A DNA stretch of 64,000 nt from Perna viridis (taxonomy: Eukaryota), in contig CM074513.1 in assembly GCA_037379345.1 (NCBI GenBank), positions 37,258,885 through 37,322,884 on the forward strand, written 5' to 3'. A program made the translations under genes and the position numbers. The notes below the pieces were generated by a model. The model searched no databases. It saw only the letters and a list, made by a program, of their open reading frames with translations, and was not told where the DNA came from. Position 1 is the first letter of the stretch. Every line of letters begins with the position of its first letter. Below are positions 7,601-58,333 of the stretch, piece by piece.

Positions 7601-10600
7601 TCAATATACAAAATTTTACGGAACCACAAAAAAAAAATGCTTTTTCAATGATTAAGTGAAGAAATGTGAAATCAATGAAAAGTTGAACAGCTTGGATTTT
7701 AAATGAATGTTCATAAGCATTGCTATTTGTTATCTTATATATTTCTATCTGAGTTTTTATATATTTGATTAGAATATAGAGGGTAGAATTGACACATATG
7801 AAGAGTACGGCAAGAACACAACTATATCTCTGAAGGTCAAAAGAAAAATTGGTGTATTAGGTACAGTAACTGTATCATGGCAAGCTGAACCAAGGGAAGC
7901 AACTTATCTTGACTTTGGACCACCAAGTGGCAGTGTTATGTTGATGGATGGTCAAGAATCAGGGGAGATAATTATCACAATAATGGATGACACAGATCCT
8001 GAAGAAATGGAGGTAAGAATGGTTACATAAATTAATAGAGATTATGTAGCATGTTATGATATATTAGCTTAAATAGCAATACCAATCTGATTTGCATATA
8101 TCATTTTAGTTTGTTTATGATAAAACTTACTCTGACCCCCTACATGTACATTGTGGAGACAAAATGATTTAAAGTACAAATAGTATCCCTTATTTATATG
8201 AAAAAATACATTACATTATAGTGTATTATTTATTTTCTTTAGACGTTTGATATCAAGTTATTATCAGTAGTTGGTGGATCATCACTAGGACCTAACAAAG
8301 TAGTCAGGGTGGCCATCTTGAAAAATGATTCTCCAAATGGACTTTTTAGATTTGTACAGAAAAAGGTAAACTGATAATATATTATGAATGAACTATTGCT
8401 CATTGGGTACCTGGTTTTGACAATTCTACGAATGCTGTTGCTTTTTATTCTTTGCTGTAATAAGAATTACATGTGTGTAAAATGCATGAAATGCATTCAC
8501 TTTTTACAATTAGAGCGTAAAACAAATGCCTATCATATCTTACATATGTTAAAAAAGACATTTTTTTCTTACTGCACTTTTTTTTCTAACATTAAGGTTA
8601 CAGTTAAAGAATCTAAAAGTGATTCAGACCCTGAAGGGGAAGTAACTCTAGATATAGAGAGAATGCAAGGAAAGGAAGGAGTAGTAAATCTACAATGGAG
8701 ACTGAATGCTGAAGCTGTTAATGATTTTATTGAACCTATTGCTGGAACAATAAAGTTCGGTGAGGTAATGAAAAAATTTAAGGTTTTGGAAAAATATTTA
8801 TATTTTTTGTTTGTTAAAAGATGTCTTCATTCTTGTATACTCATAAAATGCAGTTGAGAACCACAACAGTCTAGGAAACAGCTAGTTTCGATGATTAAAT
8901 ACAAATCAAATCTTAGCTTTTTCCAAGATAAGAATGGTCAAAACATGGCACCTGAATGTTTACAAAAAATTCGTAATCAGCTTATCATTACCAGACAATT
9001 CAACCCATATATATTTCAGACCATGACAGTAGGAGAATGCATAAGAACAATAAAAGCCATAAATCAAAACAAATGTTTCTTTGGGAGCATTTAAGGTGTT
9101 ACATTCTTCATATTATGTTCATTTCTAATATGACGTCTTCATATTGTCAAACATTATATGTCGGTACAACCCCACATTTAGCACCTGCATACTGTCTCTT
9201 TTCTTTTGCTGTCACTTTGAGACAAAACACTCATTTAAAAAGGTTTATGCAATGATTTAACAGCTGAGAGGTTATTTAATTGAAATCAATTATATAAATA
9301 CACACATTTATCACATACGATGACATAAATATACAAATTTAATCCAACTTTCATATGGGGGAGGTTGAACGGAACAGACATTATTTCGGCTATGCTTAGG
9401 GAAATTTTTGTCACAAAAATTACTGTATTTGTCATATAAGAAAAGAAATAATTCCTTCTGGGGGTAGATTTGTACTCATTTTAACATGGGTTTGGCATTT
9501 ATATTCTCATTAAACACCTCGCTCGGTGTTAAATAATAGAATATAAATGCTGTAGCCATGTTAAAATGAGTACAAATCTACCCCCTCCACGAATTATTTC
9601 TTTATTAAGGTGTGATTTTAATACTTTCTTATCCGTATATGATAAAATCATATAATAAATATTCTAGTACATAAAATATTTTTAAAGGGTGAGATAAAGA
9701 AGAGTATAAGCTTGAGAACAAAAATGGACAACATTTTAGAAGGAGAGGAAAAATTCCTCATATCTTTAATATCAGCTGACAATAATGCCGATATCTCCCA
9801 TTCTGGTGGGGATGCTGTCATTGTCCTTCTTCCTGACCCAGGATCAGCTGGCACTGTTATGATTCTGCCAGATTACAGAACAGTGTATATAGGAGAACCA
9901 GGAGAATCAAGTTCTATGTACAATGGACAAACAGATATTTTGTTAAGTAGAGGGGCTGGTATCTATGGAGATATAGCAGTGACTTGGACCATAACCCCAC
10001 GTGATCTGGATGCATTTATGCAGGTTGAAGGGACAGCTCAGTTTGGAGATTTGCAGCCAACTGCTAAAATTGTTCTTCAGGTACTGCCAGATTCAGATTA
10101 GCAATATCTTTCTATACATTTATTCTGTATCTACAAGCCTATTAAATTTGTTTAGATTTGACATAAAAAAATGTATGAGATGAATTATACTAATACAGTG
10201 GCTTTCTATGGGTGAAGTATTATAGAAAATATTTTTTGCTTTTACTGATGTGGTTATATTTTATCTGTTTGCTTTTTTTTACAATTTTCATTATGGTCAT
10301 AAGTAAAATAGGTTTTTTTTACTTTCATAGTCTAAAGATGACACTGCTGCTGAATTAAGAAGAATCTACACCCTCCAGATAAACTCAGCCACTAATGGTG
10401 CTAGTATTTCTAGTGTTCCTGGAAGTTTTGTATCTAATGTGGTATATGTAGCCAGTGACTATCCTCATGGACTGTTTGAATTTTCATTGCCTGAGATCAC
10501 ACCTATTACAGAAAATACCGCAAAGGTATTAAAACTGAGCTAATCATGAATTATATCATTGTCAGAGCAAACTTTTTCATGACTTGATATCAGTGAAATT

Positions 10601-13600
10601 ATATGTAAGATAAAATTAAGATGTAATTAGGAAATTTCAATTATTTGAGAAATTACTGAAGACAGTTATTTACTGTATTGGGTACAATATGTACTTTCCT
10701 TGTATATATGTAGGTTGGGTCATTTCAGTACCCTGCTTGTACATGTATTTTGTTCATTTTCCTCATATAGAAAGCTATGGTGTTTCAAGGTTCTCATTAT
10801 AGTTTTACCATTTCAGGTAAACATCCCCATCATAAGACAGTATGGCAGGAACAATCAGGTTCTAATCTCATACACCACTACACCAGGTACAGCCGAGGAA
10901 TATAAAGACTTCTATCCTGCTTCTGGTACTCTTATATTCCAGCATAACGAAAGACAGAAAAATGTAGAGATTACAATTGCTCAGGATGACTTACCTGAAG
11001 GGCCTGAAATGTTTTACCTTAATCTTACATCAGCCAGGCTGAGTATTCCTAGGTAAGGTTATAATTACCTTGAATATTTATGTAATTTTGTAAGACTAAT
11101 AAAAAGTGCTTTAAATGCCAGTGTGGGAAAACTTTTGAGTTGTAAAATAATGTCTATGATTATGTCATTGCAGTAACAACAATTATACAGAGATCAATGG
11201 TTTGCGGTTAGATATGGCTCCTGCAATTGGACCCATAGGTGTCAAGACTATTCTGATACAGAAAAATGACAATGCCGAGGGCACCATAGAGTTCCAGTCT
11301 GATCATTTTACAGGTAGGCTTAATGCTTCAAACCACTAATGTCACTTTCCATAGGCTGCAATGCTAATCTCACAAAGCTCAATGTATTATGGAGCTTCTA
11401 CCTTAAGTTTAACTTGAAGTAGACTATATATAAGCTGCTGCATGTCAACACTTAAAGCTCTTGTGAGGTTTACTACCTTGCAGTGCAACACCAGCTCGAT
11501 GAGCTAAAAATGGAATGGGAATTTTCCTACATTTCACAAAAAAGGGGAGTCTTCATGCAGAACTCATGAAATATTTAATTTAGTAAGTTACATTGACCAT
11601 TTTATGTAGAAATAAAGAAAATATGATTCTCTGCCAAAAAACAGACTCACTTGTGCAGAATTGATGTGCACTTTTCCACAGCAACATAACGTAAGTGCAC
11701 TAAAATTTGTAAAAGATTTTATTTTTGTGTACATTCTAAAAGCTCATTGGTTGAATTAGTGGTATGTCACCTAAATATAAAGTACAGATAGACCCTTACA
11801 ATGAAGTTTATTAACAGAAAATTGTTCTTAGGTTATGTTTTGGTTTATCAAAATAAATTTCCAATTTATTATTGTCAAAACATTTTCACAACCGGGTTCA
11901 AAATAGATTTGATTTATTTTATATTGGAAATTGATAAAAAAAATGTGATGATTAGATTTTAAAACCCATAATAAATTCACAAACTCAACTAAGGTTTACA
12001 GCCTGATGACGTTACATAGTTACTTAATGAAGTGATTTTTAACATACTAAGTTACCAAGCAAGCTGCTCAATAAATATCCTTTAATATATATATAGTTTC
12101 TTTACATTTCAGTTCTAGAGGAATCAGGTGTTGCTAAGATACCACTTGTGAGAAAGGGAGGTAATTATGGTAGCATAACAGTGAGCTTCTCAGTGACAGG
12201 AATAAATGCTACAGCAGGGGTGGATTATGTTGTTGGCAACACCAAGGTCAAAATAGAGGACAAAGAGAGTAAAGGCAGCATCGACATTGTACTCAGGGAT
12301 GACTCTGATATGGAGTATGCTGAGCAGTTTGTCATTACCATAAATAGTGTCTCAGGTGGGGACAATATGATAGGTATTTTTTTCTTTCATATAGATTCCC
12401 AATCTCATCAACAAAATACATACTCATAGTAAAATGATTATATGCGTTGCCCGTGAGGGACAGAGTTATTAGTTCTCAAATTAAATTGGCTTTGTTGATA
12501 AAGGGCTATTTTGTTATATCACTAATTCTTGCCTAAAGGTAGTATTCTAGACTTCCATGATATGCATCTGCTTTAAAAAGTTCAAATAGTCACTTCCTAA
12601 CTGCACACATTATTTCTGAAATATGTCACTTCTGACAGAACGATTATGAGCTATTTAGGTTTCAGAGTATCTACTTGTAAAGGACATCACTGACACTCAA
12701 TCCCTATTATATTCTTAAATGTCTTCAGTATAATGGCTTGTGCAACAGGGACAAAGATCACTTTGAATGGAACTTTGCTTATATACTCAAAGCATATAGA
12801 AAATGTTTAGGGTCACTTAGTTTTTTTCTCTCCTAATATTCAAAATTTGGATTTACACCATTCCGACAGTGTTTTTAAACGTTATTAAACTGTCATTTGT
12901 TTTTAAGAGGATTGGTTTTATTGTTATAGTGATTAATTTATAGAATTGTTTACATATATGCTGTGATAATAATAAAATTAAATTTATTGAATTTTCTATT
13001 GTGACCCTTAACATTTTTTGTGGAGTATTTAAATAACATACATAATTTAATTTACTAGCTCTTACTTGTAATATTGTTTTTAAATGCTATTTCAGATGGT
13101 GCTTTACTTGGCACTATAACTAAAGCTACCATCACTATTGCTAAGTCAGACTACCCAAATGGAATGTTTGGCTTCAAAGGTCCACTGCAGATCATTATGG
13201 ATAATCCTGTCAGACAAGTACAAACAACCTTGACCATTGAAAGGTCAGGAGGTCATCAAGGTCAACAAACAGTCAACTGGAGACTTTTGGGACCAAATAA
13301 CCCACAGAGAGTACTACTAGAGACCAATGATATTTTCTACATCAGTAACAACCAGGAAACTACTAGTGGACATTTGGTGTGGGAAAATGGTGAATCAGGG
13401 GCTAAAACTATTACTCTGTACATCAAACCATACTCCAGCTGGGAGGTACAGAAAATATTTGTAGTGGAAATAGTCACTGTCTCAGGTTTTCCAAATAGTG
13501 TTGGTGATGGTGAAATTGGACCTAATACTGGAAAGACAACTGTCACTGTAAGTTAAATGTATAGTGCGGTACATGCTTTAGATGTCCAAAAGTTGAAAAC

Positions 13601-16600
13601 TTCCAGAATATTGATAAAAATTAATAAATCTTTCATAAACTCAGATCATGGTCATTTAGTTGAAGGCAAATTTGTATAGTACTAAACAGAAAATTTTTAT
13701 TGAGGTAATAGGTGTTAAATGTCTTTTTATGCTTTTATGACTCTCGCATGGAAGGTTAAGATTTTGTTACTAGAACATATATCTCCAAATTCGTAAGGTT
13801 TAGCCCAATTCTGACATGTGGTGCAAGTGTTCAGCATGATGAAATCTATCTGAGGTCATTTTTTTTGTGAAAATCTGTTCAACCTTGTTGGAGTTATTGT
13901 CCTTAATATAAGTCATTGTGCTTTTATGTTATTACTTTCAAAAATCTTTTCCTCTGAAACTACTGGGCTGAATTCAATGAAAGTTGTTATGGTTGTTACT
14001 TAGATATGAGCATTTGGAATTTTTATCCAAGAAAAAACATGACTGCTTTTGCAAAAAATAGAAAGTGACTCATTAAGCCTGGTGAGCAATTTAGGCTTTT
14101 TAGAGCTATAATTTACACTTTCCTTTTATTTTCGTAGATTCGTAAGAATGGGGATCCCAGTGGTATTATACAGTTCAGTGGTGTATCTCTCTCTGAGAGG
14201 ACAGTTGAAGAACCGTCAGGGATCAGTCCCTTAGAACTACAGTTCCCTATACAGAGGAAAGACTCCACTGGTGTCATAGGCTCAATACAGGTAAGGCATA
14301 AATGTTTACCTTTGGAACAGTTCATGTGGGAGATTTTCCTGCTGTCTCAAATTGGACATTTTTACATTAAAGCAAATTTTTGAACACATTCAATCATTTT
14401 GCTATTTTTCACTGAAAATTTATTAAATTTAACCAAAATCTTTACACAAACCTTACCTTTTTATATGGAAGATTTTTATTTTTCATTGATTTGTTGGAGT
14501 ACCCCCGCAATTTGGGGGAAAGGGGGTAAGGGACTGACATATTCATAAAAGTGTTAACACTGTTTAACCATCAATCTTTAGCCATTTTGTATCTGTTCTA
14601 TACATTGACTGTTTATTTACAATTGACTGAGTAGATTTACTTTTGAAGCTTCATTCCTATATGAGTTTTAAATCAGTGCACTGTTATTGTCTATATGTAA
14701 TAACTGATATTTAACATACATTTGACTTTTTATCTTCCTGGTTCTATTTTTTTTTCAGAATTGTTAATGGTCTTATATTCAGTATTTTGTCCTTCCTTAC
14801 ATTGTATTTCAATTTCAGACATGTACTTCATGAAGAACAAAAACACTGCATATGAAATCAAACTTCACTCTCTAAACACTTTTTTAAGGTATTTTGGGAG
14901 ATAACAGGACCATTTGATACAACAGCAGATTTCCAGCCAAAGAATGGATCAGTTTTTCTGGCTGATGAACAGCGGGATTCTTCATTTAGTATACAAATTC
15001 TTCCTGATACTTTACCAGAACTAACAGAGACATTCAAGGTCATACTGACCTCTGTTCAGGGTGGAGCTGAAATAGATACCAGTAATAATGAGGCTGTATT
15101 TCATATCAGGTATGAATGTTGTCTTATTTAATTATTGTTTGACTTAATTAAATTAGAATTTTAGTTAAATTTTAACTAAAAGTAATATGTGTTTATAACA
15201 TTGTTATCTTAAAATTTGATGCATATTTACAGTAATGTAATACAAAAATTACTGAAATGTTGCTTTTTCATATGAATTGTCATATTAAGATGTGTATAAA
15301 AACATGATGAAAAAAATCAAAAGTAACATCAAGAAACCAGTAAAAGAAAAAGGAGAAGCTAGATGGTTTGATAACCATGCTTTTTTATGTACAGATATAA
15401 TGACCACCCCCATGGGTTATTTGGATTAATCCAGTCACAGCAAGCTATACATGTAGATCCATCAGACCTTGTACGATCTGTCTTCCTCAACTTTACACGA
15501 CACCAAGGCACTTTTGGCTCTGTAACTCTTACTTTTGCAGTCAGTTATGATATTGTAAGTATCTTTGAATGGAGCTTTGATTATATGTAAAGGTAAACTT
15601 TTTCATAGGTGTAAGTTATATTTTTTAAATAATATAAAAAATTTTATAAAAATTATTGAACTCTTTTATAATTAAAAACACTTTTATAATTAAAAACTCT
15701 CTTTTTTTTTATTTAATGATGTGCATTGTATCCTGGTTGATTTATTTAGGTGTCTGTGCTAAAATCTTTATTTCAGCCTCAGTCTGGTGTAGTTCTTGGT
15801 AACACAGGTGGTCCTGTAACCTTTGCTGAAGGTCAAACAAGTGTCAGGGTCAGTATACCAATTGAAGGCAATGGGTTCCTAGCTGTTGATACAACATTCA
15901 CTGCTACACTGAGAACTGTGGACTATCTGGGACAAGGAGGTAACTCAATGTTTGTCAGTTATACCTATCAATGTTCTTCCTAATCTTGTTGTTTTTATGG
16001 AAATATGGTTTTTGACTAGATAAGATTCACCACCATCTGAAAAGTATATAAGGGATGATAAAATGTTTTTTGTCTTCATATGACATTGTGACATTCAATT
16101 TTTTTTTCAGTGACTGATCCTCCTGCCTTCCAGCCGACAGAAACAGAGGCTAAGATAAGTGTACCACAGGAGGCCGCCAACAGTGTGATTGGCTTTAGAG
16201 ATCTTATTGCTGGTGTTGATGAAGGTACTGCTGTAGATTCAAATGAATTTTCGGTAGCTTGTGTTATTTTTAAGAAACTTATGTTTGTGAATAATTTACA
16301 AACTAATTCAAGTTTAACCCTTATAGTGTTTGCTATAATTAAGGAATTTAAGTATGTGAAGAAAATCTAATTGTTGTAATAGTTCTATCCTTCTTTCTGT
16401 AGCAAGCAATACAGCAACAATGACTCTTCACAGAGAAGGAACATATGGCACAGTTACAGTCCCCTGGCAGATTGGGTACCCTAGTGGACAGGACCCTGTA
16501 CAAGGGTCCCTGGGGAGTATTACTCCATCAACTGGCACTGTTACTATACCACATGGAATGGAGACCAAATCATTTGCTGTTACAGTAAGACTATGATTGT

Positions 16601-19600
16601 ACCATGCATTACATATATAAATATTCTACATGTTGCTAAGGACTGTACTTTCAGATGTAAATACTTTCTTTGATGCAGTTGATACTGAAGCAAATGGTGA
16701 ATGTATGGGAACTGGAAGCTGATTGATATAGGGAGACTTGTTGTCAAACATTAATGACTTTATCTGGGTGCGATAAAAATCTCTCCACCAAAAATGGAGG
16801 ACAAGCAAACCTCCTTCATAAAAACAACAACAACAAATTTAAAAAATGACCAATAGGTAGTTGTAATTTGCATGTGGCAGCTAGGTTCTAGGAAAATGTT
16901 TATTATAAGTAAATTTTTCTTCATCTATACTCTTCTAAGTCAGGTGTTTATTTCATGTAGGTAACAGCTGTACCCAGTAGAGAGGAGTATTTTGTGGTAC
17001 ACTTACCACACATACCGTCTACAACAGTCTCTGGTGGAACAAGACTCGACAAAGACAAGAAGATAGTACAGATAGAACCTCATGGTGTCATTAGGTTTGC
17101 AGCTAATTCAATCAAACCTGTGGTATCAGAGTTGACTGGAAAGGTATAGTAGAAGAAAGTAATGGATTTAAAATTGTGAAATTGATAATGAAATAGTTTA
17201 AGATCTTAAATTACAAGATATTTAATGAGAAACAACTTCTTTAAATCTTCTGATTAAAATCTCATTGAAGTAATATATATTATACCCTAACTCAACCAGT
17301 GGTTGATACATTGGAATCTTCTGTCCATCTGTTCAAATGTTGTTGCAATTATCTCAATTTCTATTAGATGGATTTATTTCATACTACTAAGGGGGTTTTT
17401 AACATCCTTGACTACTCGTACGAGTCTCGAATGGACAGCGTCTTAATTTCATATTTATTATGTGGCTTTATATAGGTAGGGCATATGTTGTAAGCAATTT
17501 AGTTGAGATCCAATATCAGCTTCCTGTTTCTTGAATTGCCATACAAGTGGGGATATACCTATAATGTATGCAACCTCATGCTTTGTTAAGGTTTGAAAAC
17601 CAATATTCAAATGCACAGATAATGTTGTGTATATTTTGTAGGCATATTTGTATGTACAGAGAATCTTCGGCTCTCAGGGTAAAATAGAAGTGAAGTACAG
17701 ATCACAGGGCATTAGTGCTGATAGAAACTTTGATTATATTACTACTGAAACCAATGCTGTTATAATGGAACCAGGCCAAACTTCTTCAGTCATTCAACTT
17801 CAGGTTAGATGGTATTCTGTTTTATTTCCATACCACTGAGTTTTTAGGAGAATATTTTTAACAGATTGATCAAAACAGTGTATTTTTTTTTTAAATCTTT
17901 AAAAATTTAAGTTTACTCAAGTGGATTATGAAAATATGCCTACTGACATTATATGTAACATTTTTCTAGGTCTTACAAGACAATCACCCAGAAGAAGAGG
18001 AAACATTTCATGTAAACCTAACACATGTTGAAAAGTATCCCACAGAATTAGTTCCTAGTAAGTATACTTTTAATTTTGCATCACCTCATGTAATTTTAAT
18101 AGATTTATTGAATGGTAAAATTTGGTTTTCACTTGCTATATTGAATATTATTGCTTTTTGATCAAACTTGATGCAGCAAAATGTATTTGACATTGCAAAA
18201 TCATTGAAAAATGAACTGAAGATAATTATTATTTTTATTTCTAGAAATCTCTCCTAGACTGAGTACTTTGTACTCGTCATCCCTTGTTACCATTGAGGAG
18301 AGTAATGATCCCTATGGTATACTCAGTGTAGAACCGTCTGCTGTCTCTGTAGAGGAAGAGTTCAAAAAGGTCAATCTAACTATTCAAAGAACAGGTACAC
18401 AAAGATCTTTTTTTATAAAACCAGGGTTCTTTGCAGAAAGATTTATATTACTGGTATACATTCTGATTAGTAAAGTGACATTTCATTAAAAAAATTATGA
18501 TGATGAAAAGTAAATACTTGCATATGTATGTTGTACATGTGTTAACTGGTTAATTATTGTTATTTGTATGTCAAAATTTTGACAATTCATAACATGTTAC
18601 TTAATAATTTGCTTAGACAAGGGAACTCTATAAAAAGAAGTTTGACTTTATTTGTATTGTCTTCATGTATATTGATGATTTGTAGGAGGTTTGTATGGAA
18701 CGGTTAGTGTTGTTGTAAGAACAGTTGGAGGAGGTGAAATATGGACATCCCAGATAGTAGCCACATCCTCAGACTCAAATGATACTATAACTGAGATCCT
18801 AGGCAACAGGGATGTAAAGAGTAAGGCCACTGGAGGCCTGGACTATGAAATACTGGATACTAAGGTGCAGTTCCTACAGAACCAGATGACAAAGACTGTA
18901 TCCCTGACTATATTGGCTGACAGTGCTCCAGAGGCTGATGAAACTGTGGTTGTCTACCTGACACAGCCAACAGGTGGAGCTAGAATAGCTTTAGGGTCTC
19001 CAGATGGGGACAAGAAGGTAAATCCATATCTCCATTACCAAAGCAGTCATAGGTGTCACACAAAGTGGGGAGATTTTTTGTGATTCCCTCTGAAAAAAAT
19101 GTTGTTGAGTATCCGTCAGTCTGTCCATCTGACCATCTCCCAATTGTTCTTTTTCAAACTTTGTACAGTTATTTAGTATCATAAAATACAGATCAAGTTG
19201 GAATTTCAGCTTGATTGGATTATTTACACAAAAGGTACAGCCATTTTAAGGTGTTCCTACCCCAATTTTTTTAAATGACTTCATGTTATCTTTCTTTGCA
19301 TATTAAAGAATTGTGAAAGTTACTTCTTTTGGGGTATAATGGAGTCTAGATAAATTCAAATGTATTTTTGTTTGGTTTTTTTTTCACCAAATTTTATTTT
19401 TGCTGAATTAGTGTTATATTTCTTGGTATATGAATAGGTAAAATTGATTTTTATTAATTAATTGGGAGTTGCTGAATGGAATCTATATAAAGTTTTAATA
19501 TGAGCTTAATCTGTTGTTTCTGTGTAATAATTTGTAATTTAGCATATGACTACACAGCAATGTGGCTTGGAATCATTTAATGTCCCATTAGATGCTCTAT

Positions 19601-22600
19601 TTTTTAAAAATTCTAATAGAATCGATTCGGATAAGTACCAATAAATTATTTGAGTTGAAGGTGTGATTGTTTTGAAGGTTGAATCTGATCCTTGGATACA
19701 TAAAAGTTTCCATATTTTTCCAGGGTTTTTCCATTGTAACAATATTACACAATGATGTGTCCAATGGGATCATAGGGTTCTCTGAGTCATCCAAAGCTTT
19801 GACTGTCAATGAAGATACAGCTCCAACATTTACACTACAGCTATCTAGAATAAATGCTTACTTTGGTGAAGTAGAGGTAAGTTTGGAATCATTTCTATCT
19901 CTATTTATAATTGACCTTAAACTGTATCGCATAAACTGAGTAAAATGAAACATCAAACAAGCCTTGTGTGAAAGTCTTAGATCAATTTTAGTGGTAATTT
20001 AAAATATTATTTCTCTGTTGTGATTAACCAGATTTATAGGTTTATTCTGCATCTACACACATTCTGTTTATATTAAAATAGCACAGAACCATCAAATTGA
20101 GGCATTAAAAGCACAATATTATTACTGGTCTTAAGGAGAGTAATGATCCACTGGTGTGATAATGAATCAGGATCAGTAAGCATTTGGACATTAATATATT
20201 TTTGCGATTTGATCTGATTCCTCAATTAGCTTAACTGGAAAGTTTAAAAGGGGTTAATGACATCTCATAATTTTGTTTCTTAATCTGGACCAGTTTAATC
20301 TGCAGTTTGTAAACATTTTTGATTTACTGAGCCTGTAAGAGATAAAGACTAGACATTACCTAGTTATGTGACAATCGTCATTTTTTTATAATTAGTTGAA
20401 ATTTGATAGAAAAAACACAAACATGCCTGATTTTTCAAAATTGTGATAAGAATTGGGTGGTCAGTAAAGATCATAACACCCCTATTTCACAATCACTGTA
20501 TATATAACTATAGATGATTCTTACAAAATTTTTACCTAGGTTTCTTGGAAAGCTAAGGTACACCTGACTAGTACCACTACAGAAGATGTTGTTTTAGCTA
20601 ATCAGCTGGTGAAGACAGCAGGAACAGTAATTTGTCCTGCAGAACAGTCCTCATGTACATTTGACGTATCTTTAAAGAATGATAATGTAAGTTATCCAAG
20701 ATACTGTGTTATCTATTATATTTTAAGTAGCAGTCTTTCTTAAAATCAGACAGAAGGTGATTCATGCATGTCAAAACCCCAACAAATTCAGTTTTATTTC
20801 TTGTTCATAAACAGTAGCTGATCACATAACCAGTCTTAGATTTTCATTTGGTTGTTGCGCTTTTGAGATAAAAATTATATAGATTGTACATGAAATTTGT
20901 ACTTTGCAAGAGTTATCGTTCTTGATTTGGCTTGATTTGGTTGCTTTTAGTGGGAGATAAATGTATGATTCTCTCAAAAGTGCAAATCTGAATTCAGAAA
21001 AGATTGTTGTTAAGTGAAAGTATAGCATATGTAGACTGAAAAAGCATTGTTTGTTTGGTAGGTTTTGCTTGACCATGAATCACTTTTCCATTGGTAGTGT
21101 CTGAATTTTATGTGGACTGGTATTTAATTGGAAAACTTGTTTAAGGTTGTTTTGATTATCTGAAATAGAAGAACTCCCCCAAAAAGAAGTTAGTGGAATT
21201 TTATCCTTCAAGTCATAATTGATTGTAATTATTTAGTTCTTTTAAATGAAGCAATTTTATTTAAAAGATATTGTGAGTTGGTATGTCATAGTGAGGTACT
21301 GTCAAAAAGAATAGTAATGTCTTGTTTGAAAATAAAGTGATGTAATAGCTTTACAACCAGCCTTAATTGAATTCTTTAAAACTAGATTCCAGAGAATCAG
21401 TCAACATTTATAATCTTGCTGACTGATACTGGAAAAGATGCTGAATTGGACTATAGCAGTGCAGTAGCTAACATTACTGTAGAATCCAGTGATTTTGTTC
21501 ATGGTCTGATACAGTTTACTGAGGACTCTAGGTAAATAACATGGGGTTCATGGTCTGATAGTTTACTGAGGACTCTAGGTAAATAACATGGGGGTTCATG
21601 GTCTGATACAGTTTACTGAGGACTCTAGGTAAATAACATGGGGGTTCATGGTCTGATACAGTTTACTGGGGACTCTAGGTAAATAACATGGGGTTCATGG
21701 TCTGATAGTTTACTGAGGACTCTAGGTAAATAACATGGGGGTTCATGGTCTGATACAATTTACTGAGGACTCTAGGTAAATAACATGGGGGTTCATGGTC
21801 TGATACAGTTTACTGGGGACTCTAGGTAAATAACATGGGGTTCATGGTCTGATTGTTTACTGAGGACTCTAGGTAAATAACATGGGGGTTCATGGTCTGA
21901 TACAGTTTACTGAGGACTCTGGGTAAATAACATGGGGGTTCATGGTCTGATACAGTTTACTGAGGACTCTATGTAAATAACATGGGGGTTCATGGTCTGA
22001 TAGTTTACTGAGGACTCTAGGTAGATAACATTGGGTTCATGGTCTGATAGTTTACTGAGGTTTCTAGGTAAATAACATGGGGGGTTCATGGTCTGATACA
22101 GTTTACTGAGGACTCTAGGTAAATAACATGGGGGTTCATGGTCTAATAGTTTACTGAGGACTCTAGGTAAATAACATGGGGGTTCATGGTCTGATACAGT
22201 TTACTGAGGACTCTAGGTAAATAACAGAGAGGTTCATGGTCTGATACAGTTTACTGAGGACTCTAGGTAAATAACATGGGGGTTCATGGTCTGATACAGT
22301 TTACTGAGGACTCTTGATAAATAACATAGAGGTTCGTGGTCTGATACAGTTTTCTGAAAACTCTTGGTAAATGACATGGAAATAACAAAAGCCCCATTAG
22401 AATATATGTATTAACAAGTAGGAAGGGACTAATGGGAAATGTTGGTTTGATTATGATAAAAATTGGTAGATGCATGCTCTCTTTTGATGATTTCAGTTAT
22501 TCTTTGAATACAGTCTAACTGGTTATGATGTTTGATAATTTTTAGAAAATGTCTATTTCTTTATGTACTATAGTTTTACTACTGTTAATGATATTTTATT

Positions 22601-25600
22601 TTTATGAGCAATATTAATTACCATGTAACAATTATATTTTTTAGAATCATAGTAGTCCACAAGACTACAGAGAGTGTCCAGTTGAAGGTAGAGAGAATCA
22701 AAGGATTGAATTATGATGTTAATGTTAGTTACCAGACTTGGATGATGAATAATAAGAAAGTTCTTTATGATATAGACATCTACCCTGCCTATCAAAGTCA
22801 AGATTTCAGCCAGAAGTTTGGTCTCCTGTCGTTTGTGAAGAATACACAGGTAAGAAGTTCTTCCGTTATTCCATGGAGTTCTTTCACTAATTGGAATGTA
22901 AACCATTAACAGGCTTTTGTAAAAATGAGGCGTACCTACTGTCAACATTTTTTGAAATATTTTTACAAATATTCAGAAACAAGAAAAATATTTCTTCAGT
23001 AAATGAGCAATTAAGCCATTACAATAAGACAAAAATATTGCCATGACATTTGCCATATCTACTACAATAGCTTTTCATATATCGTTACAGGATATTAAGT
23101 ATATCGATGTTGCCTTGACACCTAGGACAGCATCAAATAACCCATTCCCAAAACAGTTCTATGTGGACCTGAAAAATCCTACTAATAATGCCAGGTATGT
23201 CTGCTTCACATATGTAATTCTAAATTAACCATATTATAATTTTGCATGTGGCTCTAACTTTCTTTTTTAACCTTTAAACTTTGTTGAAGCATTTTGTTTA
23301 TAAGATATAAAATCAGTAACAATTTGTTAAATTAAATTTCATTTAATTATTTATATAGTTTTGATCATTACCATAGAGATGTTATGTTACAGCATTCATC
23401 CACAACACTACAGATCAACTGTATTGATAGTACAAGAATCTAACCTACCAATATGGAGAACCATCATTAACCAGGAAACAACCAACAATGATACTGATAT
23501 CCTTAGGTATATATCATACTAGAGGATCCTTGTCATGTCAAATTTTGTGAAATAATATTGCTACCAAAAAAACATTTTTGTACACCAATATTTTGATAGA
23601 CATATTGTGGGACATTGTCAGTCTGTCTACTGACAAATGCTGTACAGTAACTCAAATATACTGTGAGAGATTTTATTCATTTTTTTTGTTTTTTGTCTGA
23701 AGTTATTGCACGAAGCTCCATTGAGTTATTTTAATTGTTGATTTTCACCTTTTTTGTGTCAGAGTTATGGGAGTTTAAAGACCAAAAACATGGACCCCAA
23801 GTATATCATATGTATTTTAGTACAGCTGTTTATTTAAGCCATTTTAAATGGCACACAAAATAATTTTCTGTAACCCTACATCAATTCTTGCCTTTATTCT
23901 TTTATTTTTGCCAGCTTTTAGGCAAGCCATACATTTTCAAGATATAAATGATAATGCACCGATACTGAGTGAAATGAAAACATTTAAAATTGTTCACCCT
24001 AGGTCATTACATTTTCTCATTGTAGAATGCTTGTGAAACTTGATTTGATTGTAAAAGAAAATTTAGATCCTACAGAATTATCTTTGGTGGAGAAGATTCT
24101 GGAAAATATTCTTGATGAAGGACAAACCAGGAAGTATGTTATTTCTTAAAAATCATAGTTTAAATACTTTTTGTTCAAGTTGATCATATGATACTGATGA
24201 AATGGAAACTGAACCATACTGTGATGTAAAATGTTTCATGCAGAAGAAGAACATTAGTTCTTTCCAATTCATGACTTTTGCTTAAACTTTATAAAGTTAT
24301 GTTTTAGATATATGGTTTATATATATATGTAAAATGAATATCTGTCCATCATTTGTTTTTGAACTTTTTTCTAAATGCTTTGATATATTGAGCTGATCTT
24401 TGGTATGCAAGTCTACCATGATGAGTTACAGATCATGTTTATGTTTCATTGAGATTTTCTATGAATTAAGGTCCTTTGAACTTTCTTTTTTTCTTAACTA
24501 CTTTTTATTTGAGAGTCCAATATGTGGATGTGTAACATCCAATAGTATCACACTGTGTGAAATACTTTCCACTGGAAAAAAAATCATATCAAATTTTATA
24601 ATAGTTAAATGTTTTCCATGGCTGTTAAATTGTCTCCATTCTCAACCTTAAGATGATTAAACATACAAGTGTCTGAAGAGGCTTTTTTTAGGGGTACTTT
24701 AAAAAAGTGGGGCTTGGTTTTTGTGGGGTAAAAAGAGTTCACAGTGTTATAGGTGTTAACAATTTGGATAGTTTTTGATATGACATGTTATACAGGATGT
24801 TTCTAGGTATCCTGGATGATATTTCATGGGATGTTTTACATATAGTTTTTCATCTAGGATATTATTCAATTGATAAATATTTATCCATTTTATCAAGAGT
24901 ATGAATTCTGTTCACTCTTCATAAGTGAACTATATTCAGGATATTATTTAATAGTATGAAATAATTTCCTGTGTATAATTATGAATTCTGTTCACTCTAT
25001 GTGAACTATTTTCTGGATATTATTTAATACTGTTTAAATGTAGTATGAAATAATAGCCTGTGTACAATTAGGAATACTTCCAGCTTTTTTGTAATAAGTT
25101 ATAGTAAATATCATTGTTCATGTAGTGGACACAATTTAATAAGTGTGGAAAGCTTTCCATAGTGAAATAATATCCTCTGGAAAAAAAATTAATTTGAAAT
25201 GAATCATTCCACAGGATAAGATTTCATCCGGATAGTATTATGTCTTACAGATGCATGGGGTATGTGAGAGCGCCCACTAAGGTTCTTTAATTTTTTTATC
25301 ACTTAAGAATGCCTGATGACATTTTGAATGAGTTACTGAACATTATGTGTACCATGCTGGATCCTACGAGGACAGATGCCACTAGAGGAAGAGCATCACT
25401 TGGACTGTTAATGGAGAAGTTATCTTATACCCAGCTGACAGGAAAACCATGTTCTTCACCTCAATATCCTGATATGTAAGTTCTCTAATGGTCATTTTTC
25501 GCCCAACTTATATATAGACAATTTTAAGTGCACTGACTTGCCATAAGATGGATACATATCAATGTGGCGTGGCTTAGAACCGCAGAAAAATGCAAGGCTG

Positions 25601-28600
25601 CCTGAAGCATTTTCCCCAGTTCTAGTAGAGTTTGTATTAGTATATCAAAGTTATCGCCAAGTCAGTACACAATTATTGTCTTTATACTGTAAAATGCATT
25701 TTAAGCCTGAAAAAGAAGATCTCTGATCCAGAGTGGGCAACATTCCAGGCAACTAGAAAAAAATCTAACATTAGTGACTAAAAGTTTATATTCAGTCATT
25801 GACTATATATAATATTACTTCTGAATATACACTCAATACATTTTGACTGCTCAGATAGAATGATTGCAGTAAACAAGTCCTTTGTGGTTCAATTTTTATG
25901 TACCAATACTTTATTTTTGTCTTCATCGATAGGAATATTACTCATACCACTCCTCTATGCTGATCTTTTTACAAATGCATGATACCCTGAATAACTATAA
26001 ATTTTAACTATATAAGGGGCATTTTACCCAGAGATAAAAGCAAATATTATCAAAATGTTTGCCTTAACCATATATTCATAAATTATGTCTCTATGTTTAA
26101 CAAACTTTTGTCTCGAGGCTTATTTTCCCAGCTTAAAATCTAAGAGGTAATGGGCAACTTGGCTATGTTAATTTTTGTTTATTTTTGTCCATGGAAACGT
26201 TGATAGTGATAGAACCAGACCTCTTTATACTGATTCATATTTTTATTAAATAATGTATAATCTGTTTGCTTTAGGTCAACATTACAGTATTGTTTGTATG
26301 CTAAGGTATCAGCAGCCAGGTGGCCTTTACAGAAAGTTCACAACTTCAAATATAAAGCTCAGTAAGTTAACTATTATTATCAATTAAATATATCAGATTG
26401 ACAGATGAAGGATTTGTTTTATTTACATATTTATTTACCTTTATGTAGTGTTTCCTTGTATTAGCTAGCATTTTTTTTTTTGTGTCTGAACAGAAGTATA
26501 TACTTCAGGAATACCTGTTATATATTTTCTGCCTATGAATAAATAGCCCCAATCACTAAACAACCTGATATGATAGATGAAATTTCTTATTCAATCATAA
26601 AGTGTGCTACTTCAGAAATTAATTTTGTTGAAAATATAATGAATTTATCAGTTTATACATGAAGATTTTTTGCTATATTAGATAATCTTTGTTTGTTTGT
26701 GGCCTAAAATGTCTTCATATTTATTTTTGAATAAAATGGTGATCATGGATATTTTGTTTGACATTACTTGTGGGCATATAGTATTGTACAATTTCAGTTC
26801 ATTGTATTTATTTTTACAGGAAACATGACTACTTCAGGATTCCTGAAGAAATTGTTGATCCTCCACAGGGCAATGTGAGTACACAATAGAAACTAAGGTT
26901 TAAGATTTTATCTTATATTAAGATTTGTTGGTATCTATACTTCTACTCACTGTACTTGATATACATGTACATGTATTTGGAGATAATTCTTCTAATTTTG
27001 ATGATCACTAGAATTTGTTGAATTCATGGGAGACAACTCTTAAATCTGAATTTTTCATCCAAAACTGAATGATTAGCATGATTTCTAAGTACTGTACTTC
27101 ATGGTTAATTCAGTTACTTTTTTTCTTTTGACAGTGTGTAGATTTCCATATTATTGAATACAGCAGTGAATTATGGTTTATGACAAGTGACCAGCCTCAG
27201 CTGTTGAGCAACAAGGTAAAGACTTTCTTATTGATTTGTTAAAAATAGACTATTTCCTGCATTTGTTGTTTTAAAAAGAACACTTATTTACAATAAATTG
27301 TATCTACGAAACATACCAGAATTTACCTCATTGTGATAGAAGTTGATTATGATTTGGTAGTACATGTAGTACTGAAAGCTTTAACCAATAAATGCTATGA
27401 ACATAGAATTGGCTGATTCAGTATGGTGTCATGTTTTTCTTATTAAGTTTTGAACCAAATACCAGATAACCCAGATATTATTGAATATCATTTTGTTTCT
27501 ATATGCTAATAAAAATATTAATATTATTCCTTCAGATTATTAATTTTGGTTTAAAGGGCAGACCATCAACTTACTCTGATAAACCTGCAGTATATAGTAT
27601 TCATACTACTGGTAGTCGCATAGCCACACGTCAAGCTCAGTAAGTTTGAAAAACATTTATAGTCACCTGCCCCATTAATATACAGGATTTTGAATCTTCA
27701 ATCATACTGCTATAATTTTGAAATGTCTAGGTTGATTAGTGTAACAACTCCTTAAATTGACCATTACACGCAACATGTTACATTGTTAAATTTAAGTTGC
27801 TTTTTACCCATCTGTTTTTGTTTCTGTATTATAAAACACTGTCCTATATTAATCATAGGATGGAATAGTTATTAAAAAGGCCTTGGTTTGACTTTTTATT
27901 TTTTTATTCGGAAATTTCATGATCCTGATAGTGATACTTGTCACTTGATTGGCGCAAACCATGTTTTATTTTTTTTTAAAAATACATATAGCTTTTTAGC
28001 AACTAAGAGTATGAATAATGTGAGCGTGCTTGATAAAGTTCTTACCTTAGCAGTATTTAGTCAATGATTTGCAGATAAGTATTTGTTTTTTATAGATGTG
28101 TATTCTATGACTATGGCTCAGGAGATTGGGTAAACCCATCAGGGTGGTGTCAGGTGACCAACAACATTGCTGCAGGGACCGACGATTTTGTAGATTGTTC
28201 ATGTAAACATTTGACACACTATGCTGTGAAGGCCACAGCAGTGGAGATGGATGTTGTAGGATATTCTACATGGTTTTTTATTGCCTGCTTTTTCTGTATG
28301 GTACGTGGAACATTACTTGGAATGAACTTTCATATGACTTTTTAAATCAAAATATTCATGTATAAAATAAATTAGAGATGATTAAGAAAAAAATGTTCCA
28401 TGTTACATATAATCTCTCTTTTTGGGTATGTATGGCCCAAGCCATAATGGTCCACCATATATGTTCTGTGTTACATGTTATAATCTCTTTTTCCAGATCT
28501 GTATGGCCCTAGCCTTTGTGGTCCACCATATATGTTCCATGTTACATGTCAAAATCTCTTTTCCAGATCTGTATGGCCCTAGTCATTGTGGTCCATTATA

Positions 28601-31600
28601 TATGTTCCATGTTACATGTAATTATCTATCTTTCCAGATCTGTATGGCCCTAACCTTTGTGGTCCACCATATATGTTCCATGTTACATGTTAAAATCTCT
28701 TTTCCAGATTTGTATGGCCTTAGTCATTGTGGTCCACTATATATGTTCCATGTTACATGTAATTATCTATCTTTCCAGATCTGTATGGCCCTAGTCATTG
28801 TGGTCCACTATATATGTTCCATGTTACATGTAATTATCTATCTTTCCAGATCTGTATGGCCCTAGCCATTGTGGTCCACCATATATGTTCCATGTTACAT
28901 GCCATGTTCTCAGCCAATTTACTTATGCATATGTGTTTTGCCTGCTTTGCTACTCAGGTAAGTCTTCATCATTAGTAGTTAGACATAATGGTTCATATAG
29001 AATTGCTGTGTAGACTAAATTAGAAGTTTATATTTTAATATTTATAATTAATACTGAATTGGGTACAACAACAAGTAGTTTTCTAAAAGTTAATTGTAAA
29101 AATTCAAAAACTTTCTTTTTAATTGCTTGTGTAGTCTTTAACTTTGACTGTAATAAAACAACAGAAATATGTGTTGAAAAAAAAAATGGTTCTTCGAGCA
29201 AGATACTTTTATCTGAAAGCTTTTTTATCATTGATATTGTGTTATAGTATTTAATCTTACCAAATCTTATTTTATCTCTGAGATAGATGTAAATACCTTT
29301 CTGTTTCAGTTATGTTACATCGTAGCAGCATATGCCAGTCCAAATGATATTCTGATCTATAATAAGTTTGATAATAACTATAGATGTATTGTAATGGGTC
29401 TCTTCCTGCATTACTTCTTCCTTACACAGTTTACATGGATATTAGCTCAGGTTTGTGTTCATATGTAGTATTAAGACTTTTTTCTCCAATGCTCTCTACC
29501 ATAATATTAACTTGAAATTTATGTTAACAAATTTTTTTTCAATTTTACAGAACTAAAAACATACTTCAACCTTTAAAACAGGTTAAAAAGTAAATCAAGA
29601 GAACCAGGGTTCAAACAGTAACCATAAGACATAAACCAAGGACAAGGAAAACACACAAAAAAGAATAAGAAATAATCATAATAACACATAGATAGAAACT
29701 AAAGTAAATGAGCTACCCAGACTCCACTTAATATTGAGAGTATGGACCCTGGTTCCTAAAAAATCTTCAGTGTAAAATTACTCGCAAGTTATAATGTCAT
29801 AATACTCTGATATATTATGACGTGAAAAGGACTGCTGGTAGGTATGCATTAGCTCAAGACTTGAATGCCATTGACTATGGGTTTATTTTCATTAATGAAG
29901 ATAATATAAATGTTTTTTTTTTTTTTTTTTCTTCAGGCAATGAATTACTGGAAGATTCTGGTGATGAATGATGAACATACAGACAGAAAATATGTATTCT
30001 TCTTCCTGGTAGGATGGGGTAAGTTATATCATCTAAAACATTGTTATTTATGTCAAATCAATCATTTATAGCAGATTTTTTAATAATAATATAATAGTAC
30101 CATTTTACTGAATGTGATCATTTCTCAGTAGTTGTGCCTAATAAAAATTGAAATACAGTTCTATCAGAAAATTCTCTTTGGTAAATACCTTTTAAACTCT
30201 ATTTGCTGTATTTCCACAAATGCCCTGTATTCATTTATGAACCTGGTTTGAGGTTCAGTTTCCCATGATACATTTCACACATAGTTTGCATTTGAAGCTA
30301 TGAAAAGGTCATACTGTAAACCAATTTATTTTCATGAGCGTTTCATTTTTTTCTAATTTTATGAGCAAAAAAATAAATGGTGAAAAAAAACTGTTGCAGA
30401 TAAGCCCTATCAGAAATGCATGTTTGAGAGGGTGTTAGTCTCAAAATTAAAAAGCACTAGAACTCATTGAACCCATGATTATGTACACTGACTATACTTG
30501 TGTTTCTATCAATTTAGGAAGTCCAGCAGTAATACTTTCCATATTCTACACCGTGACCTATAACCTTTATAAATATGTGTATGATTTACCAGTGGACCGT
30601 ATCTATGGTGATGTTAATAATAATGGACAAATGTAAGTTTTTCACAACTGAACATAATTAATATACAAAATGTCAAAGTTATGATAGCAGATATTGTTAG
30701 ATATTCTTATATATATTTCCAAATGAGTGAAAGTTGAATATCACAAAATATTAACTCAAGTTTCTTAATGAACAGAGCTGATATTTTGCGATATTCAACT
30801 TTCACAAGTTTTTAAACCTTTTTTCAATGATGCTTATGGAAAAGTAATAAAAAATGAAAAAGTACTACTTAATGTCACATTGTCCATGGTTTAATATTGC
30901 AAATTGTTTATATAGATAGAAGTGATTGACTGAATGTTCCCAGGGTAAAAATTTTAGATAATTCATACTGTGAAATAAATTCAGTAATTTCACTCTCACA
31001 CTTTCTCCTGCCAAAACGTCATATCATGAATATCAATCCTCTGTTCACAAAATTAAAAGTTAATGTTAAAAATGGCAACAAAAAATGGAGGAAATCTATA
31101 TAATAAATAGGATAATCAGTTGGTTATCGTGAATAACCAAAATATGATAACTCCTGCTTAGAACACATTAAGTCGTGCTTTGGACAATTTCGTTAAATTT
31201 AGTCTATTAATCTAGCCATTCAAGAAGTAGTTAAAACAACCAAATCATAGAGAATAGAAATAAGATACCTCTGATGAAAATTTCTTCTCATAATATCACT
31301 TCACTAAACAATCTCCCTTATCTTCATTTTCCTTAGGTCCTACTCATTCACAGTATATTTGCTGCTTCACTTACGAATAACTTCTCTGTTTTTTTTCTTT
31401 TAGGTGTTTTATGACAAATGCCTATGCTGGATTAGGAGGTTTAATCATTCCAGTGATCCTGATACTAATTGCTGTGGGTGTCGTTTTCATGAAGGCATTC
31501 CAAGTCACACCACAATGGCAGGCCTATGATGACATATACAGGGGCAGATATAATATTAATGGTATATTTTCTTACTACAGAACCATCATACATGAACTTC

Positions 31601-33445
31601 ACACCACTTTGATGATTTAGTGGTAGCATATGTCTGGAGGAAGAGAGGTTATAGGTTCAAACCAAAGCCCAGTATCATGCCTTTCTGCAGAGTATTTTTT
31701 AGTTGTGGGTTCATCGAAGTTCTGAAAGTTCTAAGTTTAAAGTTGTGGACAAATATAAACCATGGCCATCAAAATTTATCAAATGTATTTTTTGTGAATG
31801 CATGAGATATGCAAATGGATGCTTAATTACAATAAATCAATCTAACTGCAGCCACAGAGCAAATGTGTAATTATTTGAATGTAGGTAAGATCAACCCAAA
31901 AAGGAGATTGAAATCTTAGTTCGTGTTTGATAAATTTTAAAGAAGTTTTCAGGGATGACCAAATATTTACAAATATAACAAAATAAACTCCTTTTTTATC
32001 CTTTTACAAGTATGTTACCCAATTTACTCCAACTAGTCACTATTTTTGTTACTTTTCTATGAGTCATTACTATATTACAGAAATCCGTACTTTATTGTCA
32101 TTCTGGGGTGTGATTACCATGACATGGTTCTGGGGAGGATTACATCTAGCCTATGGACAACTATGGATGTTGGTTCTATTCTGTATCTTTAACATAATAC
32201 AGGTATGTAGATGGTACACTTTTTTTATTATAGAGCTTGTAATTCCAGCTTATTTTTTATCTGGTATTTATACTGTAAGAAGCATTCAAAACTAAAGATG
32301 ATTTGTATTAGTTTCCTTCTTCTATGTACATTAATGTGATACATGGTTATCAGAATTTTCTATATTGTGTTTTCATTATTGTATAAGGCAATAGGAATAA
32401 AGATTTAGTCTTTACTCAATCAAAATTGAAAAAATAACCACTTGCTATGGTTGAATGGAAAGTTGGGGACCTAATCTCATGAATTTGCTGTGTTGAGACT
32501 TACAGCCCTAAGCCAGTATACAGTAAAATAGTAACTAGTACAAAGCATTATTTCACAAGCTTAGGCACTTCTTATACATAATTGACAGAAATTTGAGGGA
32601 ATAATACAATTTTTTTTTTTTTTTTGCTTCTTCCATCTGTATTGAATACAAATACATATTTAATTGAAATCTGATCACTTATTTTGATATTTACATTTAA
32701 AACTTTTGTACTCAGGGAGTGATGGCCCTTGTATTATACACTATTCTGCGGAACCCCATGATACAGAAATGTTTTGGGCCACAGAAGTCGGGTTACCCTG
32801 CCAATACTACAGGGGATGGAGTGTCTACTAACAACCATACTAATACAATCCTAGATATCAACAGTCTTAAAGGTTCTAGAGCTTCTATATTAAATGAGGT
32901 GAGTTCTATCAAAGTATGTCAAGGTGCATTTGGTATTTTCAGAGGTTACATCTGAAATCATGAAAAAAGTATACATTTTTAAAATTTATACCCTAAAAAA
33001 ATCAAAGGAAGAATTAATATTAAAAATAAGAGGAACAAATGATTCTTAAAACTGTATCTGTTACAAAAAAAGGAAGGTATCAATGCAGATACTTAGTATT
33101 TATTTTGCAGTATATTGCTTTTAGAAGACCTTAATCCTTGTGTTTACTTGAATATTTCAGAGTTGGGAAAAGGACTCTTTACATACAAAGAGCACAATGA
33201 AAGTAAAGCGTACCTTGCCAATCAATCGTAACATTTATGTAACCCCACCAGTTTTTGTGCCATCTACGACGGTCACTGATGAAAATCCAGATGAAGATTT
33301 AGATGAACTATTGTTTGCTTTGAAAAATGACAGTTTTGTGCCAAGTGAGACTTCAAGTATTGCATCAGAGAAAACTTCAGATCTCTCAAGTAAAATTGAC
33401 AAGTATGAAATGAGGAGGATTTCTATTGCTGATACTCATTTATAG
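1..33445 (+). CDS. ADGRV1: Adhesion GPCR V1 (GPR98/VLGR1), 3' portion, many GT-AG exons; 5' end lies outside the window
   Basis: Exon translations give EAR/EPTP-like repeats (e.g. exons 365-645, 738-1003, 1407-1638), then repeated Calx-beta motifs (D-x-x-P-E-x-x-E-x-F-x-V-x-L and I-x-x-N-D-x-x-x-G-x-I-x-F) from ~2150 to ~23200, a GPS motif, seven-TM exons and a last exon ending RRISIADTHL-TAG, close to the vertebrate ADGRV1 C-terminus (RRIPIADTHL). Phases were compatible at the junctions I checked. Confidence 0.96.
1867..2083. mobile_element. MITE with terminal inverted repeats
   Basis: actgtgaaagtac ... gtactttcacagta ends plus inner inverted match (taccaattt / aaattggta); a related degenerate copy lies at ~42240-42428. 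Confidence 0.65.
2475..2787 (+). mobile_element. Non-autonomous repeat with subterminal inverted repeats, copy 1
   Basis: aggtgattcatg (2482) ... catgaatcacct (2750); clearly homologous to 20748-21122. Confidence 0.7.
5934..7450. repeat. ~35-bp minisatellite (consensus ctaaggtcttacaaagccacaatcccaatgagatt), >30 diverged copies, in an ADGRV1 intron
   Basis: Direct tandem periodicity; interrupted at 7160-7381 and resumes afterwards. Confidence 0.95.
7160..7381. mobile_element. Foldback/MITE-like element inserted in the minisatellite
   Basis: Ends caaatgtgccacacatgagaatcatatgg / ccatatgattatcatatgtggcacatttg are inverted repeats; interior made of ~11-bp catatgataat units. Confidence 0.8.
9442..9603. 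mobile_element. Palindromic MITE-like hairpin element
   Basis: aaagaaataattc..gggggtagatttgtactcattttaacatgg mirrored by ccatgttaaaatgagtacaaatctaccccc..gaattatttcttt; centre aacacc-tcgctc-ggtgtt. Confidence 0.85.
13780..14110 (+). mobile_element. Partial Helentron-associated (HINE-like) element
   Basis: Shares cctctgaaactactgg, gagttattg.cctt, aaaacatg..tg...aaaaataga and ggtgagcaattt.agg motifs with 33925-34831. Confidence 0.55.
20748..21122 (+). mobile_element. Non-autonomous repeat with subterminal inverted repeats, copy 2
   Basis: Homologous to 2475-2787 (ttcagttttatttcttgttc, gatcacataaccagtcttag, catgaatcac, gtgtctgaattttat..ggactggta). Confidence 0.7.
21497..22379 (+). repeat. ~49-bp tandem repeat, ~18 copies, unit = last 35 nt of ADGRV1 exon 21387-21531 plus 5' splice site
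   Basis: Unit gttcatggtctgata(ca)gtttactgaggactctag|gtaaataacatgggg; the first copy is the real exon end (VHGLIQFTEDS). Confidence 0.97.
24901..25070. repeat. Short diverged tandem duplication (~80-90 bp x2)
   Basis: atgaattctgttcactct...gtgaactat...ggatattatttaata...gtatgaaataat..cctgtgta occurs twice. Confidence 0.7.
28096..28300 (+). CDS. ADGRV1: ADGRV1 exon with GPS autoproteolysis motif and start of TM1
   Basis: Translates to ...W..PSGWCQVTNN...VDCSCKHLTHYAVKA..VVGYSTWFFIACFFCM. Acceptor tatag at 28091-28095, donor gtacgt at 28301. Confidence 0.92.
28393..28901 (+). repeat. 70/71-bp tandem repeat, ~7 copies, unit = 3' splice site plus first ~52 nt of ADGRV1 exon 28850-28957
   Basis: ttccag|at(c/t)tgtatggcc starts at 28497, 28567, 28638, 28708, 28779 and 28850, plus a degenerate copy near 28427. 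Confidence 0.97.
28850..32898 (+). CDS. ADGRV1: ADGRV1 7TM exons (28850-28957, 29310-29450, 29937-30018, 30518-30632, 31404-31561, 32081-32202, 32716-32898)
   Basis: Hydrophobic segments with adhesion-GPCR motifs: CIVMGLFLHYFFLTQFTWILAQ, YVFFFLVGWG.P, WFWGGLHLAYG, FNIIQG. Confidence 0.9.
33161..33445 (+). CDS. ADGRV1: ADGRV1 last coding exon with class I PDZ-binding C-terminus (DTHL)
   Basis: ttcag acceptor, then SWEKDS...DEDLDELLFALK...YEMRRISIADTHL*; AATAAA at 33474-33479. Confidence 0.92.
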   Translation, partial: SWEKDSLHTKSTMKVKRTLPINRNIYVTPPVFVPSTTVTDENPDEDLDELLFALKNDSFVPSETSSIASEKTSDLSSKIDKYEMRRISIADTHL

Positions 33446-53182: not shown

Positions 53183-53274
53183 TTCTTTCGTTTTAAATCA
53201 AATAAAATTACGAAGAACCTGAGAACATACCAGCTGTGAAAAAAGTTCAAGGTCGATTGCTCACCGCTTGCGTA

Positions 53275-53390
53275 TTTTTTGTTTTGTTTTGTTTTGTTTT
53301 TGGTTTACTGTTGTTCACTTTGTTTTGATTTTCTGATTTAAATTTTTTTTTGTTTTTTTTTTGGTTTTTTTTGTTTTGTTTTGTTTTTTC
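53275..53390. repeat. (GTTTT)n / poly-T low-complexity tract just upstream of ALDH2 exon 1 (duplicate at ~58549-58665)
   Basis: Direct reading. Confidence 0.85.
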
Positions 53391-58134: not shown

Positions 58135-58333
58135 CCATGCAGCATATATCATATCTTTTGTGGGTCGGGCAGTCTGCAACCACAGCCCGCTCGGACAGAT
58201 TCACGGACAATCTTTTATATATTTACAATACCTAAGTTCAAGCACGTACATTATGCAGAGGCGTATAAAAAGGCAATAGAATGCAAATAACAGAAATATA
58301 TGCACAGTGGTCAAGTTCCAATTATTGCCTTAC

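Follow-up and report, generated by a model that had tools for sequence, protein, structure and literature searches.

A minisatellite spanning a 5′ splice site of the predicted ADGRV1 gene of Perna viridis, probably a tolerated junction repeat

One 5′ splice site of a predicted ADGRV1 gene in Perna viridis forms the first unit of an 18-unit tandem array that continues into the intron. Our analysis of the 64,000-nucleotide stretch of DNA around it (the window) suggests, with a probability of about 0.8, that the array is a junction-spanning minisatellite, or "mirage", that is tolerated rather than functional, in which the most upstream donor (donor 1) would win by position and any leak to other donors would decay. 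The array belongs to a class that has already been described, a relation that the initial annotation of this DNA overlooked. The features of the locus are as follows.

2..33445, + strand: ADGRV1, 3′ part; 51 exons with GT-AG at every junction and 2957 codons up to the stop; domains EPTP, Calx-beta, GPS and 7TM
21386..21531, + strand: ADGRV1 coding exon of 146 nt (IPENQ...FTEDSR), a Calx-beta-like linker with AG/GT ends and fitting phase; unit 1 takes its exon part from the last 35 nt
21497..22379, + strand: donor-spanning minisatellite, 18 units; units 1-9 are grouped in three blocks of 147 nt (49/48/50 nt)
21532..21537, + strand: true 5′ splice site TAG|GTAAAT (donor 1), the sole donor that keeps the frame
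21546..22379, + strand: 17 intronic copies of the donor unit, with pseudo-donors after 21578, 21628, 21678, 21725, 21775, 21825, 21872, 21922, 21972, 22020, 22067, 22118, 22166, 22216, 22266, 22316 (GT lost) and 22366
22380..22644, + strand: unique remaining 265 nt of the 1113-nt intron, which include the true acceptor
22645..22849, + strand: next ADGRV1 exon, 205 nt (IIVVHK...VKNTQ)

The gene model was assembled from splice signals and phase, and it runs over its 51 exons without a frameshift or internal stop to one terminal stop. Its domain order (EPTP/EAR, Calx-beta repeats, GPS, 7TM) fits ADGRV1 (VLGR1). A Pfam scan of nine exons returned EPTP in two, Calx-beta in one and GPS in one, the other five having no relevant match, and the sole PDB match of a 7TM exon is ADGRV1 itself (9fte_A, E 4.6e-9). 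On these domains and this match, the predicted host gene is ADGRV1, as the initial annotation had named it. Exon 18685-19017, compared with cluster representatives, matches unnamed Calx-beta proteins, on which the identity of the gene is not based. The exon at the array has no Pfam match when scanned alone; it ends in a D-x-x-x-G-x-I/F-x-F motif, as do nine other repeats of the protein. A spliced product across the array junction was not found among proteins of at most 2000 aa, where 0 of 7 candidates scored for the downstream exon and 0 of 6 for the upstream exon. Donor 1 is of middling strength, ranking 29th from the weakest among 62 donors of the window. The acceptor with which it pairs had been placed at 22646, one nucleotide too far downstream, the exon starting at 22645. 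A cryptic acceptor AG precedes 22497, 148 nt upstream of the true acceptor, and scores 8.24 against 8.32.

Tandem Repeats Finder (TRF) reports 21497-22379 (+) as a tandem repeat of period 50 with 18.0 copies, 91% matches and a score of 1477, in agreement with the roughly 18-fold amplification first proposed. Unit 1 is composed of the final 35 nt of exon 21386-21531 followed by GTAAATAACATGGG, so that the unit encodes the end of its host's own exon. The earlier description of the unit as the last 35 coding nucleotides plus the donor holds for unit 1; in 6 of the 17 copies (2, 5, 8, 11, 12 and 14), a 2-nt deletion leaves an exon-derived part of 33 nt instead. Units 1-17 measure 47-50 nt each, and 14 of the 18 units are distinct in sequence. 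The string CTAG|GTAAAT is identical in 13 of the 18 units, namely the true donor and 12 of the 17 copies, which bears out the claim that most downstream copies carry it, and the GT is kept in 17 of the 18 (16 of the 17 intronic copies). Runs of at least three G are found at 15 of the 17 unit junctions. We found no other copy of the unit on either strand of the 64-kb window, and a search of the window against Rfam gave no matches at gathering score. The array shows head-to-tail units of minisatellite size, a terminal unit that is the true exon end, intronic copies that keep the splice signal and a diverged edge, all features of junction-spanning minisatellites. The 24-mer at its junction has 17 near copies. 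Among random intronic 24-mers outside known arrays, 6 of 1356 have any near copy within 1.5 kb, so the array is not due to chance.

Variation among the units points to repeat turnover. Units 4 and 7 share one substitution, units 2, 5 and 8 share the 2-nt deletion, and the most diverged units are 17 and 18, with 4 and 8 substitutions compared with 0-3 in the others. The 147-nt blocks and decayed edge units are ordinary minisatellite turnover, and the array is best read as a recently turned-over repeat. It arose when 50 nt spanning the end of the exon underwent tandem duplication and were then amplified, probably by slippage or unequal exchange, with the true exon end remaining unit 1. The same turnover bears on whether the array is an artefact of assembly and is missing from the animal or much shorter there. 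The length of the G-runs differs among units, and another part of the window contains a tandem duplication (5.28 kb, 99.8% identical) that may itself stem from misassembly; both would fit such an artefact. However, 14 of the 18 units differ, and their shared variants recur in a regular three-unit pattern with decay at the 3′ edge, a regularity that argues against one. The array is also 883 nt long with unique flanks, which is easy for long reads, and the window contains no N. We therefore consider an artefact extremely unlikely.

Substitutions are not concentrated on the splice signals of the copies (6 of 24 events, P 0.25; 5 of 20 types, P 0.28), in a comparison of low power. Selection against the pseudo-donors is thus not seen, a pattern that fits copies which are nearly harmless but that a young array would show as well. 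As 6 of the 17 copies, including the one that adjoins the exon, carry the 2-nt deletion, a contraction by unequal exchange could bring this frameshift into the exon itself.

The reading frame of 51 exons and 2957 codons remains open through donor 1 only. Read-through past donor 1 gives ...FTEDSR followed by TAA, the immediate in-frame AGG-TAA stop noted in the initial annotation, and every other donor meets it as well. The products of donors 2-4, when translated, end at window residue 2150 of 2957, short of the GPS and 7TM region and with 18 junctions downstream, and the remaining donors share this one stop because it sits directly behind donor 1. The proposal that only the most 5′ donor gives the full-length frame is thus upheld. 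Skipping exon 21386-21531 also breaks the frame. Use of donor 2 would produce an exon of 193 nt, a length reached or exceeded by 14 of the 49 internal exons; the exons would measure 193-440 nt with donors 2-7, inside the range of the gene (maximum 452), and 487-981 nt with donors 8-18, outside it. As a signal for intronic polyadenylation, neither AATAAA nor ATTAAA occurs in the 1113-nt intron. Given this and the 18 downstream junctions, general rules of nonsense-mediated decay (NMD) suggest that decay is a likelier fate for leak products than a stable isoform. Leak from donor 1 to nearby donors is plausible, since the human 6-16 and CBS genes are described as also using two nearby pseudo-donors (PMC1557585); here, a minor leak to donors 2-3 would generate mRNAs with a premature stop that are probably degraded.

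What would single out donor 1 among so many equivalent sites? Predicted pairing does not mark it out, with P(unpaired) in a local folding model of 0.013 compared with 0.004-0.069 at the copies. Masking of the pseudo-donors by RNA structure was rejected as a candidate on this lack of an accessibility difference, together with a fold z of -2.0, which 3 of 100 shuffles equal, and a centroid that is mostly open over the array. G-runs are a further candidate donor selector, against which stands the report that mutation of the G triplets has no effect in human F7 (PMC1557585). With 12 of the 17 pseudo-donors identical to the true one and pairing that does not distinguish donor 1, the choice would have to rest on position. 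The spliceosome may take the first donor that it meets or the donor nearest to the upstream acceptor across the exon, and such arrays would survive only where this default choice still yields the original exon.

The precedent for such a choice is mammalian, the host here being a mollusc. In the 37-bp VNTR of intron 7 (IVS7) of human F7, the first unit spans the exon end, and all pseudo-donors are reported to work once the upstream ones are knocked out; in minigenes, the most upstream donor alone is used, and neither deletion or addition of monomers (1-6, 8-12) nor G-triplet mutation has an effect (PMC1557585). The introduction of the same paper lists 6-16 and CBS IVS13 as using two further nearby sites, and LAMIN B2 (LMNB2) and PDGF intron 4 as using the true site only (PMC1557585).

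The copies also invite a reading as recursive or self-correcting splice sites, in which the TAG|GT of each copy serves as a weak acceptor and splicing of donor 1 into the array regenerates a donor, with stepwise removal of the intron. An AG directly precedes the GT in 14 of the 18 units, and some 22 nt farther upstream each unit has a branch-point-like CTGAT, recognized by eye. The acceptor scores in the array are nonetheless only 1.9-4.5, compared with 8.3 for the true acceptor and a median of 7.2 and 5th percentile of 3.0 among 62 true acceptors; the array also lacks a pyrimidine tract, and two AGs intervene. Recursive splice sites are mostly known in very long introns, and this intron is merely 1113 nt long. 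Stepwise removal of this kind is hardly to be expected here, and a tolerated repeat with positional choice of donor 1 remains our preferred reading.

Two further arrays in the window span splice junctions, both at acceptors.

28393..28901, + strand: second junction array, same gene (ADGRV1), 71 nt x 7, at a 7TM exon, with the true acceptor in the final copy (exon 28850-28957)
37403..37602, - strand: third junction array, in ALDH2, 38 nt x 5, with the true acceptor in the final copy (exon start at 37426)

In the 71-nt array, the upstream copies keep the pyrimidine tract and CAG, and all six upstream starts (6/6) lead to a premature stop. The exon that follows has a weak single match to 9fte_A (E 0.46). 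In the 38-nt array, three of the four upstream starts stop at once and one shifts the frame. In each of the three junction arrays, the exon is shortest when the true site is used. First-come scanning accounts for the donor array only, and pairing across the exon would account for all three. The acceptor arrays, in which the true site comes last, thus point to such pairing, and a single gene with arrays at both a donor and an acceptor offers a natural setting for testing how splice sites are chosen in a mollusc.

These arrays also bear on whether the donor array could act as a dosage dial, with downstream donors that compete with donor 1 so that longer alleles yield more decayed transcript or more secreted ectodomain lacking the transmembrane (TM) region. 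Every alternative donor truncates the product before the GPS and 7TM, 12 pseudo-donors are intact and of middling strength, 6-16 and CBS are reported to leak to the two copies that follow (PMC1557585), and the human isoform ADGRV1c is described as a predicted soluble form that arises through splicing-induced termination (PMC13729602). On the other hand, donor choice in F7 is reported to be unchanged by copy number (PMC1557585), and the known leak is limited to the nearest copies, so that extra far copies should not scale it. The 18 junctions beyond the stop and the intron without a canonical poly(A) signal favour decay over a stable isoform, and the same layout recurs at two unrelated acceptors. 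We regard such a dial as unlikely. The initial annotation had offered two alternatives, strong preference for the first donor and tuning of ADGRV1 output by copy number. The former is what the precedent shows (PMC1557585); the latter finds no support here, as F7 minigenes with 1-6 and 8-12 monomers are described as spliced alike (PMC1557585), AATAAA and ATTAAA are missing, and the layout is shared with the two acceptors.

Tandem copies occur at 3 of the 124 junctions of ADGRV1 and ALDH2. Among arrays with at least five copies, 3 of 5 span junctions compared with 0.78 expected (P 0.029), and among those with a period of at least 30, 3 of 7 do so (P 0.087). The window was chosen on the donor array, and the counts were hence also made without it, giving 2 of 4 arrays (P 0.11) and 2 of 6 (P 0.25), respectively. 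Junction enrichment of minisatellites is thus a lead and not established, and a genome-wide enrichment in the mussel, taken alone, is a tentative possibility that we hold to be somewhat doubtful. Its combination with a donor array that leaks in proportion to its length, such that mussel minisatellites form preferentially on splice junctions and also affect output, is very unlikely. Were this combination true, the balance between full-length ADGRV1 transcripts and those that are decayed or encode a secreted ectodomain would depend on allele length. The frameshifted copy beside the exon would, through unequal exchange, keep giving rise to null alleles, and the adhesion receptor would thereby be under a mutable dosage dial.

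The minus-strand neighbor is ALDH2, whose model of 468 residues aligns without gaps to Mytilus californianus ALDH2 at 92% identity, with one exon at 95%. ADGRV1 and ALDH2 (37312-49904, -) lie tail to tail, the last mapped ALDH2 exon being less than 4 kb away from the ADGRV1 stop. The 5.28-kb tandem duplication (49918-55195 and 55194-60469, 99.8% identical) holds the first ALDH2 coding exon twice (53182-53057 and 58456-58331) and starts at a distance of 14 nt from the acceptor of the ALDH2 exon that follows; it is either a recent duplication or an assembly error. A higher-GC stretch in an ALDH2 intron (~43900-47500, +) has, by appearance, the look of a LINE-type retroelement, and it contains a 72-nt two-copy repeat at 47280-47430. 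Open frames at 59443-62472 (-) and 57322-57612 (+), partly inside the 5.28-kb duplication, resemble endonuclease/reverse transcriptase and transposase fragments. Two other minisatellites are intronic only and touch no junction, at 5932-7144 (35 nt x 35, diverged) and 40311-40570 (43 nt x 6, 99% identical).

Overall, the donor array is most likely harmless, since splicing in the lancelet and human cases of this layout relies mainly or solely on the first copy. As a single locus it matters little, because the class and the first-donor rule are already published; what it would add is the bivalve lineage. Junction arrays have practical relevance to gene prediction, exon-primed PCR and read mapping, and may be mutation hotspots. 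A bivalve report of junction-spanning arrays was not found in the literature searched, which included few subscription papers, and among the matches listed (titles and abstract starts), none concerned mussel junction arrays or mussel ADGRV1. A source on human repeats describes cases that can affect splicing, and a layout like that of the donor array is not among the cases in the passages considered (PMC10078293).

The closest parallels are the amphioxus mirages (Adh3, the globins BflGb6 and BflGb9, TnC and PGBD5), which, like the donor array, are tandem copies of exon-intron boundaries (PMC3087553, PMC3902484). As described, they occur at donor and acceptor boundaries alike, with units of 10-160 bp, AG/GT often kept, a homogenised centre and a diverged edge, all of which are shared here, and the turnover reported for them (PMC3087553) is matched by the 147-nt blocks and decayed edge of the donor array. 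The boundary mirages of PMC3087553 are reported to be length-unstable, apparently with no disturbance of splicing, and the same is stated of those in Adh, TnC and PGBD5 (PMC3902484). Length polymorphism and normal splicing are reported as shown for these amphioxus arrays; the mussel array is described here from genome sequence, and its 18 copies compare with 3-6 in BflGb6. Human F7 has a first unit that spans the exon end, identical intronic pseudo-donors and G-runs in the unit, as does the donor array; it has 4 exon nt per unit, 5-9 copies and some pseudo-donors free of a stop, unlike the 35 exon nt, 18 copies and one common stop found here (PMC1557585). The donors of human 6-16, CBS, LAMIN B2 and PDGF are listed as repeated 10-26 times, with CBS (15-20) and PDGF (16-18) in the range of the mussel array (PMC1557585). 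The unit also contains the AG|GT that is duplicated in tandem in the Rogers model of intron gain, as cited in PMC3087553. Unlike in that model, the donor array has formed no new exon or intron, and intron sequence and a stop lie behind its copies.
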